From contig USOV01000001.1 in the NCBI GenBank assembly GCA_900556455.1, positions 1-50,625 of the forward strand: a DNA stretch of 50,625 nt, in the 5' to 3' direction. The notes under the pieces were generated by a model. That model saw only the letters and a program-made list of their open reading frames with translations, was not told the origin of the DNA and did no database searches. Positions 27,352-30,673 of the stretch are shown here, piece after piece. The stretch's first letter is position 1. The number at the start of each line of letters is the position of its first letter. Origin of the DNA: an uncultured Clostridium sp. Lineage in GTDB: Bacteria; Bacillota; Clostridia; TANB77; CAG-508. A program made the position numbers and the translations under genes.

Positions 27352-27879
27352 ATGAATATAACAATATCAGGAAAAGATTTAAAAGCAACAGAGGCAATTA
27401 AAGATTATGCAGAAAAGAAAATGGAAAGATTAGTAAAATATTTTGGAGAAGATTTTGATGTAAATCTTACAATAAGAACAGAAAGGGAAGAACAAATAGC
27501 AGAAGTAGCAGTAAAAGCTAAAACAGATACATATAGAGCAGTTACAGCTCATAAAGATTTATATGCATCAATTGACAAAGATGTAGATATATTAGAAGGA
27601 CAAATAAGAAAAACAAAAACAAGAAAAGAAAAAGCAAACAAAGAAGACTCAATAAGAAACTTAAATGTTGATATGTCAATGCCAGAAATAGAAAACGAAA
27701 TAATAAAAACATTGTATTATGAGATAAAACCAATAACACCAGAAGATGCAATGTTAAAATTACAAGAAAAACCAGCAGACAGATTTATAACATTTGTAAA
27801 TTCAGAAACAAACAAAGTAAATGTATTATTCAAAATGAAAGATAATAAAAACTATGGTTTAGTAGAACCAGAAGCATAA
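27352..27879 (+). CDS. hpf: Ribosome hibernation promoting factor (long HPF).
   Basis: MNITISGKDLKATEAIKDYAEKKMERLVKYF... is joined to a C-terminal dimerisation domain (FITFVNSETNKVNVLFKMKDNKNYGLVEP). Confidence 0.9.
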   Translation: MNITISGKDLKATEAIKDYAEKKMERLVKYFGEDFDVNLTIRTEREEQIAEVAVKAKTDTYRAVTAHKDLYASIDKDVDILEGQIRKTKTRKEKANKEDSIRNLNVDMSMPEIENEIIKTLYYEIKPITPEDAMLKLQEKPADRFITFVNSETNKVNVLFKMKDNKNYGLVEPEA

Positions 27880-27916
27880 AAAAAGAGGGCAAGTTCTAAA
27901 ACTTGCCCTTACTTTT
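27878..27916. terminator. Terminator hairpin, copy A of a duplicated ~35-nt element.
   Basis: AAAAAAAG-AGGGCAAGTT-CTAA-AACTTGCCCT-TACTTTT is near-identical to 30636-30673. Confidence 0.75.
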
Positions 27917-28181
27917 CCATAATATGTTCTTGAACTAGACTTATAAAAAGGAACAAAAGGTACTTTCATATCATCAAAATGTATAGCTTTTATATATTCA
28001 TTTAATTGTTCACAAAAAGTCATAAGAAACCTCCATGTTTATAATTCAAAATTAATTATAATATACCATAAAAATATAAGAAAAACAATCGCCAAATTAA
28101 CAATGAAACTTTGGCAAAAAATATAAAACAAATAGGCAGTTATGATAAAATAAGTAAAAAAATTAAAGGAGGAAATGTAAA

Positions 28182-29309
28182 ATGAAAATTAAAAAAAGTA
28201 AAATATTTATTGCCATTATGTTACTACTTTGTTTTGCTTTATCTGTTATGCCAATGAAAGTATTGGCAAATTCAGAAATTGGTGATGTGGATATTGAGGG
28301 CGTAACTTTTGATTATAATCCAGGTGATGCTCCAAAAGCAACTGCTTACAAGTGTGATCCATGGGATGAACAATACGATATAGAGTACGAATACTGGGAA
28401 GAGATGGAAACTAATGAAAAGGGTGAATCTGTTCCAGTAAAGTTTTGGTACTCTGATGAGAGCAAGAATAATGCCCTTTCACAAGATAAAAAAATAACTA
28501 CTTTTGAAGAAGGCAAAACTTATATGTATAGTATTTCTCTTAAAGCAAAAGATGGAAATACATTCGCAACTGATAAAAAAGTAATGGTAAATGGGACACA
28601 TGTTAATAGCATCAATGTAACAAATTATGAAACAGGACTTTTTGTGACTGCTGTGCGAACAATAAAACCAAAAACTATTACATACAAACATATTAGTGTT
28701 GTTGAGATAAATAATGCAACAATTAGCTTTAAAACAGGTGATAAACCTGTATTCTCAGGAACAACACCTGAAAATGTTCCATATATTTACCAATCTGAAT
28801 ATTGGAGTACTGATGGAGGTAAAAAATATTATTATGCTGCTGATTTTTGGAATATCAACAACCCGGATGATTTATTTACCAAATTTGAAAGTGGTAAAAC
28901 TTACACTTATGGAATATATTTTAAGGCAGCAGAAGGATATTGTTTTACAACTGATACTAAATTAAAAATAAATGGTAAGTATTACGATTATGATACGACT
29001 GATTATGACCCAATGTTACAATATAATGAAGGTGAATATGCAACAATGTGGGTTGACACAAATTTGACAATAATACCAACAGAAAACTCACAGGAAAACC
29101 CAATAACACCAAGTGAACCTGAAAAACCATCAGACGACCCAGTTACACCAACAACACCAACACAAGAAACAGAAAACAAAACAGAACAAACAAATAACCC
29201 TAAAACAGGAGATAATATAGTAACATTTAGTATTATGTTTGTAGTAGCCTTGACAGGAATATTATTAACAACTATAATAAATAAAAAAAGAGCTAAAAAC
29301 AGTAAATAA
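28182..29309 (+). CDS. Sortase-anchored surface protein with two divergent internal domains, a Pro/Thr-rich stalk and an NPKTG sorting signal.
   Basis: The signal peptide is MKIKKSKIFIAIMLLLCFALSVMPMKVLA. The C-terminus is NPKTGDNIVTFSIMFVVALTGILLTTIINKKRAKNSK. An AGGAGG RBS is present. Confidence 0.8.
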   Translation: MKIKKSKIFIAIMLLLCFALSVMPMKVLANSEIGDVDIEGVTFDYNPGDAPKATAYKCDPWDEQYDIEYEYWEEMETNEKGESVPVKFWYSDESKNNALSQDKKITTFEEGKTYMYSISLKAKDGNTFATDKKVMVNGTHVNSINVTNYETGLFVTAVRTIKPKTITYKHISVVEINNATISFKTGDKPVFSGTTPENVPYIYQSEYWSTDGGKKYYYAADFWNINNPDDLFTKFESGKTYTYGIYFKAAEGYCFTTDTKLKINGKYYDYDTTDYDPMLQYNEGEYATMWVDTNLTIIPTENSQENPITPSEPEKPSDDPVTPTTPTQETENKTEQTNNPKTGDNIVTFSIMFVVALTGILLTTIINKKRAKNSK

Positions 29310-29317
29310 AAATGATT

Positions 29318-29356
29318 AAAAGAAGACTAGCCAAAATTTGTTAGTCTTCTTTTTAA
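29318..29356 (+). terminator. Hairpin terminator or attenuator between the substrate gene and the sortase gene.
   Basis: AAAGAAGACTA-N12-TAGTCTTCTTT is followed by T residues. Confidence 0.6.
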
Positions 29357-29369
29357 AAGGAGAACATAA

Positions 29370-30131
29370 ATGCCTAAGGATAAACACAGTAATAAGAAAA
29401 AAACGAATATTATAAGCATGATTTTAATGTGCTGCTGTATTGTACTTTTAATTTATTCTGGTATAAAAATAGTGGTATGGTGTATGAATAATAAAAATAA
29501 CAAAAAAATATTAGACGAAATATCAGAGTTTGTTACAGTTGATGAAAAAAAAGAAGACAATGATGATGAAAGATATGCAGTAGATTTTGAAAAATTAAAA
29601 GAAAAAAATTCAGATGTAGTAGCGTGGCTAAAAGTAAATGGAACTAATATTGAAACAACAGTTGTAAAAAGTACAAACAATGATTATTATTTAACACATA
29701 ATTTTAATAAAGAATATAATGCAGCAGGTTGGATATTCTCAGATTATAAAAATAAAGTAGATGGAACAGATAAAAATTTAGTTATATATGGGCATAATAT
29801 GAGAGACAACTCAATGTTTGGGAGTTTAAAGTGGGTTATAAATGAAGAATGGTATAACAATGAAGATAATAAATATATTACTTTAGTAACTGAAAATGGA
29901 ACTCAAACATATGAAGTATTTTCAGTTTATCAAATAGAAAAAGAAGATTATTATATAAAAACGAATTTCAATACCGAAGAAGAATTTATCAACTTTGTAC
30001 AAACAATTAAAAAAAGAAGTAAAAAGGATTTTAATGTAGATGTAAATAAAGAAGATAACATCTTAACATTATCAACTTGTGCAAACAATAATAAATATAG
30101 GGTTGTTCTGCATGCTAAAAAAATAAAATAA
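29370..30131 (+). CDS. srtB: Class B sortase.
   Basis: There is an N-terminal TM anchor. DVVAWLKVNGTNIETTVV, LVIYGHNMRDNSMFGSL (catalytic His), TLSTCA (TLxTC Cys) and RVVLHA (Arg) are present. Confidence 0.9.
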   Translation: MPKDKHSNKKKTNIISMILMCCCIVLLIYSGIKIVVWCMNNKNNKKILDEISEFVTVDEKKEDNDDERYAVDFEKLKEKNSDVVAWLKVNGTNIETTVVKSTNNDYYLTHNFNKEYNAAGWIFSDYKNKVDGTDKNLVIYGHNMRDNSMFGSLKWVINEEWYNNEDNKYITLVTENGTQTYEVFSVYQIEKEDYYIKTNFNTEEEFINFVQTIKKRSKKDFNVDVNKEDNILTLSTCANNNKYRVVLHAKKIK

Positions 30132-30146
30132 TAGTGGAGAGATAAA

Positions 30147-30584
30147 ATGAGTAAAAAAGTTATATATATAATTTTAATTATAATAGTAATATGCTTAATA
30201 GGCGCTATATTAGTAAAAAACAACAAAAAACAAAATAATGAAGAAACACAAATAAGTATAGCAAATGATGTAGATAAATTAAAAAATATTGATACAAAAA
30301 ACATAGAAAATATTAAATATACCTTTTATACAGAAGGTGGAGCTCAAGAAAATACCATAACAGATAGAGATTCTATTGAAGAAGTGTGTACTAGAATGAA
30401 AAATATAACAATAGAGAAGAAAAGCAATGTAGGAACGACAGATGATGGACTTACTATTATAATAAAATTAAAGAATGAAAACTTAAAATATGTTTTTGAA
30501 GGAAAAAATATTATTATTAATGAAGAACAATATGAAACAAAAAATTTGGAACAATTAAAGGCGTATTTAAAAGCATTAAAGTAG
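30147..30584 (+). CDS. Hypothetical membrane-anchored protein.
   Basis: A GGAGAG RBS is present. The protein has an N-terminal TM helix (VIYIILIIIVICLIGAILV). I recognise no family. Confidence 0.5.
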   Translation: MSKKVIYIILIIIVICLIGAILVKNNKKQNNEETQISIANDVDKLKNIDTKNIENIKYTFYTEGGAQENTITDRDSIEEVCTRMKNITIEKKSNVGTTDDGLTIIIKLKNENLKYVFEGKNIIINEEQYETKNLEQLKAYLKALK

Positions 30585-30635
30585 GGGGCACTTTTGAGCT
30601 CTCCACAAGCATAGAATAAATAGAGCCAGAAGTAT

Positions 30636-30673
30636 AAAAAAGTAAGGGCAAGTCTAGAACTTGCCCTTACTTT
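30636..30673. terminator. Terminator hairpin, copy B of the duplicated element. It serves the SASP gene (minus strand) and the 30147..30584 gene.
   Basis: AAAAAA-GTAAGGGCAAGT-CTAGA-ACTTGCCCTTAC-TTTA has a T-run on the minus strand. Confidence 0.8.

Follow-up and report, generated by a model that had tools for sequence, protein, structure and literature searches.

A sortase B cassette between hpf and ssp in a gut Clostridium species is bracketed by a duplicated terminator hairpin and probably stems from an old insertion

A piece of a sortase B locus probably entered the terminator hairpin shared by hpf and ssp in an uncultured Clostridium species (CAG-508, TANB77), duplicated 53 nt of its target, and is by now an old insertion that has become fixed; we infer, with low confidence, that the hairpin directed the strand transfer. 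The window analyzed here is a stretch of 50,625 nt of contig USOV01000001.1 (GCA_900556455.1). The assembly (G000) amounts to 875 kb and is 75% complete; its single sortase gene and its lack of a transposase, as stated below, should therefore be taken provisionally. The locus comprises the following features.

27352..27879, plus strand: hpf, long form of the ribosome hibernation-promoting factor (Pfam Ribosomal_S30AE and its C-terminal domain); left conserved flank
27863..27915, no strand: repeat copy 1, the final 17 nt of hpf and a hairpin (stem 27885-27910), ending exactly at the T-tract CTTACTTT
27916..28023, minus strand: relic of an HTH regulator gene of 575 aa, codons 1-11 fused to 204-233 and then cut at the repeat edge
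28024..28181, no strand: promoter region between divergent genes, taken over from the donor-type locus (DNA identity of about 73% to the stretch separating regulator and substrate genes in G003:C69 and G006:C10)
28182..29309, plus strand: 375-aa surface protein, sortase B substrate, with signal peptide, NPKTG, hydrophobic stretch and basic tail
29318..29353, plus strand: internal hairpin, terminator- or attenuator-like, between the substrate and sortase genes (fold -16.6 kcal/mol, z = -5.4)
29370..30131, plus strand: class B sortase (TIGR03064, 202.2 bits against a cut-off of 153.75; Pfam Sortase, E = 2e-15)
30147..30584, plus strand: 145-aa protein with one N-terminal transmembrane helix, lacking a sorting signal and a family match
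30585..30620, no strand: 36-nt segment between the cassette and repeat copy 2
30621..30673, no strand: repeat copy 2, a degenerate non-coding hpf 3' end and a hairpin (stem 30639-30673), its right side running into the conserved ssp flank
30758..30973, minus strand: ssp, alpha/beta-type small acid-soluble spore protein (Pfam SASP, E = 1.6e-29); right conserved flank

The two copies (27863-27915 and 30621-30673) form an imperfect direct repeat of 53 nt that is 81% identical without gaps and about 89% identical with two small gaps, the longest identical run common to both being at most 16 bases. Each consists of the final 17 nt of hpf and a GC-rich hairpin, and the repeat takes in the last five codons and the stop codon of hpf (TAGAACCAGAAGCATAA versus TAGAGCCAGAAGTATAA). 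A preliminary description had placed near-identical hairpin elements correctly at 27878-27916 and 30636-30673 and had recognized the duplication, but the length it gave, about 35 nt, falls short of 53 nt. Local alignment of flank against flank scores 70, compared with a maximum of 40 among 300 shuffles. The core palindrome pattern, for which 0.00 chance occurrences are expected in the window, has exactly two sites in the 875-kb assembly, both in the repeat copies; this rules out a dispersed terminator repeat and differs from the many copies that define REP- or BIME-like elements. Since sequence convergence is possible among the GC-rich hairpins of AT-rich genomes, the copies might be two independent look-alike terminators, or members of a dispersed REP-like family, with no duplication at all. 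We give this hardly any credence, since the similarity covers 17 nt of hpf coding DNA and lies well above shuffled controls, since 875 kb hold two copies only, and since the empty sites described below carry exactly one.

The hairpins have the predicted character of intrinsic (rho-independent) terminators, with fold z-scores between -3.2 and -6.5 (copy 1, -16.8 kcal/mol, z = -3.7; copy 2, -22.7 kcal/mol, z = -6.5). A terminator scan picks out copy 1 in both orientations and copy 2 in the orientation of ssp (minus strand). Rfam covariance models yield no match with E ≤ 0.1 on either strand between 26500 and 31500, and a reading as a known RNA family was dropped. By eye, the hairpin is a perfect short stem unlike the attC sites of integron cassettes, and there is no tyrosine recombinase within 10 kb of the locus.

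The genes hpf and ssp are convergent throughout the family. An empty site, in which one copy of the repeat hairpin separates hpf from ssp, is present in three same-genus genomes (G001, G002 and G004; the hpf of the window is 86-92% identical in same-genus genomes) and in two metagenome contigs (L216 and L219). Copy 1 preserves the left flank of this site, its left portion running on from the sequence seen at the empty sites of relatives, and copy 2 preserves the right flank. Judged from these five lineages, the repeat can be regarded as a target-site duplication. This bears out the earlier proposal that the block was inserted between hpf and ssp and that the duplication is its footprint, by the very comparison suggested for it: relatives lack the cassette at the site and have a single hairpin, and the element is not scattered in the genome, where it has two copies.

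The block between the copies, about 2.7 kb long, bears the class B sortase gene, and intact homologous sortase loci lie at other genome positions in G003, G006 and G023. Such a donor-type locus is made up of a divergent HTH regulator gene, a substrate gene, the sortase gene and genes for small membrane proteins. The cassette is a decayed fragment of this larger regulator-sortase locus and not a clean mobile unit; on the left it begins within a regulator gene that has been truncated. The regulator relic matches L063:6385-8112 (BLASTP, aa 204-233 at 83% and aa 1-14 at 64%; DNA identity 89.5%); its internal deletion sits between TATATAT repeats, and its junction with the repeat edge shows 0-1 nt of microhomology. 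The annotated 54-aa ORF at this place (28023..27859) continues through the hairpin. A reading of this minus-strand ORF of 54 codons as an SprT-like remnant was rejected, as it is the relic of the 575-aa HTH regulator. The 375-aa protein ends in ...NPKTGDNIVTFSIMFVVALTGILLTTIINKKRAKNSK, a sorting signal of the kind carried by sortase substrates and weakly matching the IsdC sorting region; with the proteins of donor-type loci it shares the N-terminal signal and the C-terminal sorting signal, its body being unrelated. The gene of the 145-aa protein has 86% DNA identity to a gene 3' of the sortase locus in G023:C9, and past its stop codon no homology to donor-type loci is found in the 36 nt up to copy 2 (30585..30620). 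The preliminary description was right about the NPKTG protein and the class B sortase; the third product, described there as a small anchored protein, is the 145-aa protein, predicted to be anchored in the membrane and not by sortase. Within 16-18 kb around the sortase in G003, G006 and G023 there is no hairpin of the hpf-ssp type, and no donor copy of the cassette is left in G000. A simple relocation from the dnaE-peroxiredoxin position of G003 found no support, as the gene order there differs in G000.

The insertion is old: divergence between the copies amounts to about one position in five to one in nine, and the regulator gene is reduced to a relic of 36 codons. Two contig look-ups, by hpf and by ssp, covered 23 contigs each; the contigs inspected come from at least ten human-gut samples. 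In both, the cassette is present at all 10 places shown and likewise at the 10-11 listed as similar; both junctions are invariant between contigs except for poly-A length, and no excised or empty allele occurs among the contigs inspected. On this evidence the cassette has become fixed in the species, with no indication of present movement or excision. In the JGI metagenome contigs, neither the empty-site allele nor, as a positive control, the filled left junction was found; the organism is absent from that collection, which therefore has no bearing on excision. Precise excision through the repeats, as envisaged earlier, finds no evidence, all inspected contigs being filled with invariant junctions and the repeats having at most 16 identical bases in a run. 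Fixation is probably owed to the cassette having the only sortase gene detected in the 75% complete assembly, which encodes at least seven xPxTG candidate surface proteins elsewhere.

The gap between hpf and ssp spans 66 nt to 7.4 kb and has cargo of more than 400 nt in 24 of 40 species genomes, which makes the site a family-wide hotspot for gene gain. In G003 and L215 the cargo is an AAA_14/DUF4143 ATPase gene with a 68-nt duplication of the whole hairpin, and in G339 an ATPase gene (40% identity to the G003-type protein) with a 74-nt hairpin duplication, the copies of which are 93% identical. At least two further independent insertions (G003/L215 and G339) thus firmly duplicated the whole hairpin, and weaker cases exist in G100 and G014. 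At 53, 68 and 74 nt, the duplications exceed the palindrome of 26-35 nt, around which they are asymmetric, and their boundaries differ among the three events: one boundary falls at the T-tract on the hpf strand in G000, and 12-18 nt past the stem on the ssp strand in G003 and G339. A scan of species-representative genomes for the hairpin gave, among the matches listed, chance palindromes in unrelated phyla, none of them adjoining hpf or ssp.

Elements integrated by tyrosine recombinases are typically flanked by direct repeats that take in the 3' end of some conserved gene. The cassette might accordingly be what is left of such an element, comparable to a CIME: an att site mimicking the hpf 3' end and hairpin would have served for integration, the recombinase and most genes would have been lost later, and the two copies would be attL and attR. 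Copy 2 does imitate the hpf end in degenerate form, the palindrome is built like a recombinase core site, arm-spacer-arm, and elements with a large serine recombinase reside nearby, inside ssp of G002. We nevertheless consider this origin rather improbable. Neither the window cargo nor the inspected ATPase cargoes of G003, L215, G339 and G012 contain an integrase or recombinase. Furthermore, the left repeat adjoins a broken gene and not an element end, the three events have different boundaries where identical ones would be expected from a fixed crossover site, and the intact sortase loci elsewhere lack the flanking repeat sequence.

In G012, a member of another genus, the G003-type ATPase cassette occupies the same hpf-ssp gap and is 90% identical, whereas hpf DNA there is only 72% identical, which argues for transfer into the same gap. 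Gain of this cassette by recombination anchored in ssp is unsupported, the ssp-side spacer being of the recipient type; the target hairpin has a different sequence, and the transfer left no duplication. These observations weigh against homologous integration of the Campbell type, in which a circle already bearing 50-75 nt of the hpf-ssp spacer, perhaps excised from another strain via its own flanking repeats, recombined with the chromosome. A single crossover would duplicate exactly the common segment, the 53-74 nt concerned come close to the lower limit for RecA, and spread among close relatives would be accounted for. However, the first duplicated arrangement would still need an origin, the inspected contigs of the species show no sign of excision, and G012 received its cassette despite the different hairpin and without a duplication, so that this route appears improbable to us.

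The comparisons indicate that in the ancestor hpf and ssp converged on one common bidirectional terminator hairpin, and that in the lineage of the species a piece of about 2.7 kb of a sortase B locus inserted at it, duplicating 53 nt of the target (the final 17 nt of hpf and the entire hairpin). As an outcome, copy 1 would terminate hpf and copy 2 ssp, with the cassette insulated between them. As the mechanism we prefer, with low confidence, strand transfer independent of homology, directed by structure and staggered around the hairpin, with gap filling to follow. The left junction free of homology, the absence of Ku and three whole-hairpin duplications with different boundaries together suggest this kind of transfer. 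Capture of a linear fragment by Ku/LigD end joining is disfavoured, as Ku is absent from 21 related genomes.

Replication-based copy-and-paste (FoSTeS/MMBIR-like) might produce a similar arrangement: fork or repair synthesis stalls past the hairpin between two strongly expressed convergent genes, copies a few kb of an ectopic template and returns 5' of the hairpin, leaving a duplication of variable length. One boundary just past the hairpin and another at variable distance, as seen in every firm event, would follow from this, as would duplications exceeding the palindrome, and the lack of any need for element ends suits a cassette that starts inside a gene. Template switching, however, usually leaves 2-10 nt of microhomology, more than the 0-1 nt at the left junction; a template in the same cell hardly explains the 90% identical ATPase cassette in the same gap of another genus; and the donor copy is missing from G000. 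We therefore see it as unlikely, if worth keeping in mind.

For hairpin-directed transfer, the best available candidate enzyme is, tentatively, a hairpin-targeting transposase of the IS1182 type acting in trans. In this family, IS1272 and the staphylococcal TnSha1 target terminator hairpins without primary-sequence specificity and re-use the same hairpins, and an ordinary chromosomal gene was mobilized by one IS copy and an imperfect extra end (PMC4923244). Duplication of the stem-loop is one outcome predicted by the published model (PMC5678879). Elements of the family and remnants of their ends occur in the bacterial family of the species and in the hpf-ssp spacer itself: G008 contains an IS1182-family transposase gene with 39-nt inverted ends starting GGGGACGG, G001 contains two further transposase genes, the G003 cargo contains, close to its right end, two tandem 16-nt exact matches to the G008 IS end, and palindromes of the form GGGGAC...GTCCCC lie in the hpf-ssp spacer of L219 and G283. 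In contrast to the window, the published insertions of TnSha1 and IS1272 delete part of the hairpin and show no duplication (PMC4923244). The cassette has no IS, transposase gene or IS1182-like end remnant at its borders, inspection of the cargo ends (27916..., ...30620) showed no terminal inverted repeats, and GGGGAC-type palindromic elements are absent from G000. PF13751 transposases are present in G001 and G008 and absent from G003 and from G000, the latter 75% complete. The IS1182-like copy in G008 lacks a flanking hairpin duplication. Moreover, a simple cut at both feet of a cruciform does not predict duplications that are asymmetric and longer than the palindrome, which speaks against an IS1182-type enzyme, and with two firm events besides G000 the boundary regularities could be coincidence. 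More speculatively still, and rather doubtfully, a homology-independent, hairpin-directed route might paste gene blocks without transposase into intrinsic terminators, copying the terminator (50-75 nt) on both sides, in gut Clostridia and perhaps in bacteria generally; the reaction would be carried out by a hairpin-targeting transposase that works in trans and accepts arbitrary or cryptic ends, or by an undescribed enzyme, and the hpf-ssp terminator would be a favoured landing pad.

Integration hotspots between core genes, such as those of the minimal mobile elements of Neisseria and the defence islands of E. coli and Pseudomonas, resemble the hpf-ssp site in their two conserved flanks and in cargo that differs by lineage and lacks mobility genes. 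The AAA_14/DUF4143 ATPases of the hpf-ssp cargo presumably belong to a class linked to defence islands. The hotspots of Neisseria, E. coli and Pseudomonas are explained by replacement through homologous recombination of the flanking genes, with no target duplication, whereas hpf-ssp cargo is bracketed by terminator duplications of 53-74 nt and its flanks are not donor-like. CIMEs are decayed elements without integrase between att repeats at a gene 3' end. The cassette likewise is integrase-less cargo between imperfect direct repeats containing the 3' end of a housekeeping gene; unlike in CIMEs, no integrase-bearing relative turned up, the junction falls within a broken gene and each event has its own repeat boundaries. 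Cas1-type integrases, which act in CRISPR spacer acquisition and in casposons, make staggered transfers flanking a palindromic repeat, gap filling copies the repeat, and the incoming ends need no homology. The copying of a whole repeat to both sides of the insert is shared with the hpf-ssp site, where the inserts are gene blocks of kb size and the duplications are 53-74 nt and not of a fixed repeat length; among the genes read around the locus there is no cas1 gene or CRISPR array. Among SrtB loci of Firmicutes (S. aureus srtB-isdC; clostridial SrtB with (S/P)PxTG substrates), a sortase B gene adjoining an NPxTG-type substrate gene is common ground, and the window sortase is a TIGR03064 member. 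The window locus differs in lacking heme-uptake genes, in a substrate body without family match, in the loss of the regulator and in its position between hpf and ssp.

Taken alone, the locus is an old, fixed gene gain of modest importance that explains why a sortase lies between ribosome-hibernation and spore-protein genes in a gut species with a small genome. The broader pattern is that one common terminator has been struck repeatedly across the family and that at least three events copied the whole terminator around cargo free of mobility genes. Gene gain at hotspots is usually ascribed to homologous recombination in the flanks, which cannot make terminator duplications. A dedicated hairpin-directed mechanism, if it exists, would give a mechanical reason for the accumulation of genes at the terminators of convergent genes, where they would arrive transcriptionally insulated and the neighbouring genes would keep their stop signals. 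It would also fill a gap for the IS1182 family, for which whole-stem-loop duplication has been modelled (PMC5678879), the insertions documented in PMC4923244 and PMC5678879 being hairpin deletions only.

A screen of G000 for other direct repeats containing hairpins gave one candidate, on contig C3; its ungapped extension is insensitive and missed the known pair. Within the cassette, a perfect TTGACA-17-TATAAT (29250-29278; 12/12 in the promoter scan) lies just 5' of the internal hairpin, and the stop codon of the 145-aa gene is polymorphic, giving products of 133, 145, 149 or 155 aa.

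We conclude that the class B sortase cassette entered a recurrent hotspot, the gap between hpf and ssp, long ago and is now fixed there. The features of the locus are the following (window coordinates; strand where assigned).

27352-27879, plus strand: hpf, ribosome hibernation-promoting factor gene, left of the repeat pair and converging on ssp
27863-27915: direct repeat, copy 1
28023..27859, minus strand: 54-codon ORF preceded by a good ribosome-binding site
28182-29309: 375-aa protein carrying a signal peptide and, at the C-terminus, an NPKTG sorting signal, then a hydrophobic stretch and a basic tail
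29250-29278: predicted promoter, a perfect sigma-70-type match just before the hairpin at 29318-29353
29318-29353: strong hairpin, from folding
29370-30131: class B sortase, scoring 202 bits with TIGR03064 (cut-off 154)
30147-30584: 145-aa protein; a single N-terminal transmembrane helix, no sorting signal or family match
30621-30673: direct repeat, copy 2
30758-30973, minus strand: ssp, alpha/beta-type SASP gene, right of the repeat pair and converging on hpf

The repeat between the two convergent genes is imperfect and 53 nt long. Copy 1 takes in the last five codons and the stop codon of hpf, copy 2 holds the hpf 3' end as a degenerate, non-coding version, and both contain a GC-rich hairpin, GGGCAAGT-loop-ACTTGCCC. 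The copies are 81% identical without gaps and about 89% identical with two small gaps, and their longest identical run is 16 nt. Aligned repeat flanks score 70 against a maximum of 40 among 300 shuffles. The preliminary description gave correct coordinates for the duplicated hairpin element and thus the right position for the repeat, but too short a length: the true left edge lies 15 nt further out, inside the hpf coding sequence. The palindrome core, for which 0.00 chance occurrences are expected in the window, is confined to the two copies in a search of the genome's own 875-kb, 75%-complete assembly (G000). Both copies fold far more strongly than shuffles, and terminators are predicted by score on both strands of copy 1 and on the ssp strand of copy 2; an Rfam search of 26500-31500 returned no family match. 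About 25-47 nt from the hairpin, towards ssp, the window (30690-30700) and its relatives carry a short motif resembling one hairpin arm. This motif varies with the arm between genera (ATTTACCC occurs with ACTTGCCC, ATTCCTGC with GTTCCTGCC); it may have been left behind by older duplications, or it may serve as an alternative pairing partner within the ssp 3' UTR.

That the block was inserted, with the repeat as its footprint, had been proposed from the window alone and is supported by the relatives. Three genomes of the same genus (G001, G002, G004) and two metagenome contigs (L216 and L219, whose hpf genes are 90% identical) show hpf, a single hairpin copy and then ssp. Aligned to these empty sites, the left flank runs on in copy 1 and the right flank (TTATGTAAAAACAAATCC...) runs on in copy 2, the pattern that a target-site duplication should leave. 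The closest sortase genes in relatives, 82% identical, lie on other contigs in other contexts, the one in G003 between dnaE and a peroxiredoxin gene, and the 16-18 kb of surrounding sequence that was retrieved showed no such hairpin.

In gene content the cassette is an ordinary class B sortase locus, and comparison of its DNA with intact regulator-sortase loci (in G003, G006 and G023) matched four segments: the relic of a regulator gene, the divergent promoter region, the sortase gene plus the part of the substrate gene that encodes the sorting signal (84%), and the third gene (86% to G023). For the rest, the substrate gene shows no relation to these loci, and the relatives' 374-aa gene between the sortase and the small membrane protein is absent. 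The 54-codon ORF was rejected as an independent gene, since its residues 1-11 correspond to residues 1-14, and its residues 7-36 to residues 204-233, of a 575-aa HTH-domain regulator encoded divergently upstream of the homologous sortase loci in the three genomes. The relic has also lost about 590 nt internally, between TATATAT microhomologies. Hence, the cassette is a decayed fragment, in which no terminal inverted repeats, recombinase or transposase were found. At the left junction CTTACTTT is joined directly to TCCATAATA; the donor reads ...CCTAT before TCCATAATA and the target continues from CTTACTTT into ATGTAA, so microhomology amounts to at most 1 base. On the right, donor homology ends with the third gene's stop codon, and the next 36 nt, up to copy 2, match none of the donor-type loci. 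Within the species, the stop codon of this 145-aa gene (30581-30584; loci L068-L077) is variable (TAG, TAC or TAA-type changes), so that the product has 133, 145, 149 or 155 aa, and the tail of the gene seems to be under weak constraint. The same loci include one strain with a 36-nt in-frame deletion and one with a 259-aa sortase.

Exact-protein look-ups, one by hpf and one by ssp with 23 contigs read each, found the cassette in all 10 places shown, from different human-gut samples, and in the 10-11 similar ones also listed. In ten compared contigs, the two repeat copies and the two junctions vary only in poly-A length. A scan of JGI metagenome contigs yielded neither an empty-site allele nor, as positive control, the filled left junction, which indicates that this organism is not represented there. 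Precise excision by homologous recombination between the repeats, as initially suggested, finds no support, given that the cassette is in every place seen and that the copies share no run longer than 16 nt. A plausible reason for fixation is a single sortase serving many candidate substrates: one sortase gene was detected in the 75%-complete assembly, alongside at least seven ORFs with sorting signals of the pattern xP[KRYV]TG (SPRTG, IPYTG, NPKTG, IPKTG, LPVTG, LPKTG and FPKTG), spread over five contigs (C1, C13, C15, C16 and C18). As the assembly is incomplete, this argument is provisional.

The convergent hpf-ssp pair is kept family-wide, with a gap ranging from 66 nt to 7.4 kb and cargo of more than 400 nt in 24 of 40 species genomes. 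The cargo comprises AAA_14/DUF4143 ATPases, small HTH proteins and others, among them an ABC transporter ATPase gene with a response-regulator-like gene in G190. In another genus, the gap of G017 (L093, contig C5 reverse-complemented, about 707-3427) holds a 474-aa surface protein, a 182-aa protein and a different protein of 181 aa that is sortase-like by eye; no flanking duplication was detected there. Duplication of the whole hairpin recurs in G003 and contig L215, where the copies have 68 nt in common around a 398-aa ATPase, and in G339 of another genus, where they share 74 nt at 93% identity around an ATPase only 40% identical to the G003 type (empty comparator, G149). Since their boundaries differ, these two and the window duplication are separate events. 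Weaker cases are G100, with shared flanks and a diverged left hairpin, and G014, with the hpf end repeated over 14 nt.

Moreover, the G003-type ATPase cassette and its promoter region are 90% identical over 1.39 kb in the same gap of G012, a different genus (L085, contig C6 reverse-complemented, about 745-2130, against L215 2849-4239), whereas hpf DNA is only 72% identical and the spacer beside the G012 cassette is of the recipient type. These sequence comparisons indicate that a gene lacking mobility functions was recently transferred horizontally into the same gap; the flanks were not replaced, which suggests that insertion is targeted to it. The context resembles that of known hotspots between core genes, from which the hpf-ssp gap differs in that cargo without mobility genes is flanked by 53-74-nt duplications of an intergenic terminator.

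How such insertions might arise is constrained by several observations. The homology-free left junction disfavors homologous or microhomology-driven joining and thereby counts against template switching, an unlikely source of both insertion and duplication. End-joining is disfavored because Ku was not found in 21 related genomes, and a fixed-site recombinase because boundaries differ between events and none is encoded in the inspected cargoes. What remains is transposase-like strand transfer, in which joining would take place at staggered points on either side of the hairpin and filling of the gaps would yield the duplication.

Among known systems the IS1182 family comes closest. Its member IS1272/TnSha1 inserts at terminator hairpins regardless of sequence, strikes the same hairpin repeatedly and mobilizes a chromosomal gene with one IS copy (PMC4923244). 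Its insertion removes part of the hairpin without duplication (PMC4923244), while the window insertion duplicates the whole hairpin; stem-loop duplication was modeled as an alternative outcome in a later paper (PMC5678879). IS1182-type transposase genes occur in G001 and G008, the latter within a 1.66-kb element with 39-nt inverted ends starting GGGGACGG (L262, G008:C4, 1321-2980). Contig L215 (4270-4400), which resolves a stretch of N in G003:C13, holds two tandem 64-nt units, each beginning TTGTCAATGGGGACGG, a 16-nt exact match to the G008 end; the units lie about 60-125 nt in from the right-hand border of the G003 cargo. Furthermore, the hpf-ssp spacers of L219 (7560-7640) and G283 (L246) contain GGGGAC...GTCCCC palindromic elements whose ends match the start of the G008 inverted repeats. 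No IS1182-type end remnant was found at the window cassette ends, nor were an IS1182-type transposase or GGGGAC-type palindromic elements found in the 75%-complete assembly, and the duplications exceed the stem-loop in length and are asymmetric around the hairpin, which counts against this route for the window. An IS1182-type transposase is a tentative candidate, itself less likely than not; it ranks somewhat ahead of template switching, and other mechanisms rank lower still. The value of the locus lies chiefly in being a single data point that bears on a possible hairpin-directed insertion process.

Two further arrangements were observed. In G002 (L067, contig C44, 2521-7809) ssp is split into aa 1-34 and aa 31-72, about 5 kb apart, by an element with genes for a large serine recombinase (545 aa) and a 277-aa protein. 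It also contains a frameshifted ATPase gene, read as ORFs of 149 and 314 aa, with a resemblance to AAA_14/DUF4143 by eye. From its sequence, the insert looks like an intervening element of the sporulation-gene type, which would be cut out during sporulation. Outside the window, contig C3 of the genome carries a second hairpin-containing direct repeat (287-320 and 6747-6780; 34 nt at 97% identity, about 75 nt counting flanks), enclosing a 6.4-kb block with an ABC transporter, a response regulator and two genes that are core-like by eye, a ylqF/RbgA-like GTPase and a mini-RNase-III-like gene.
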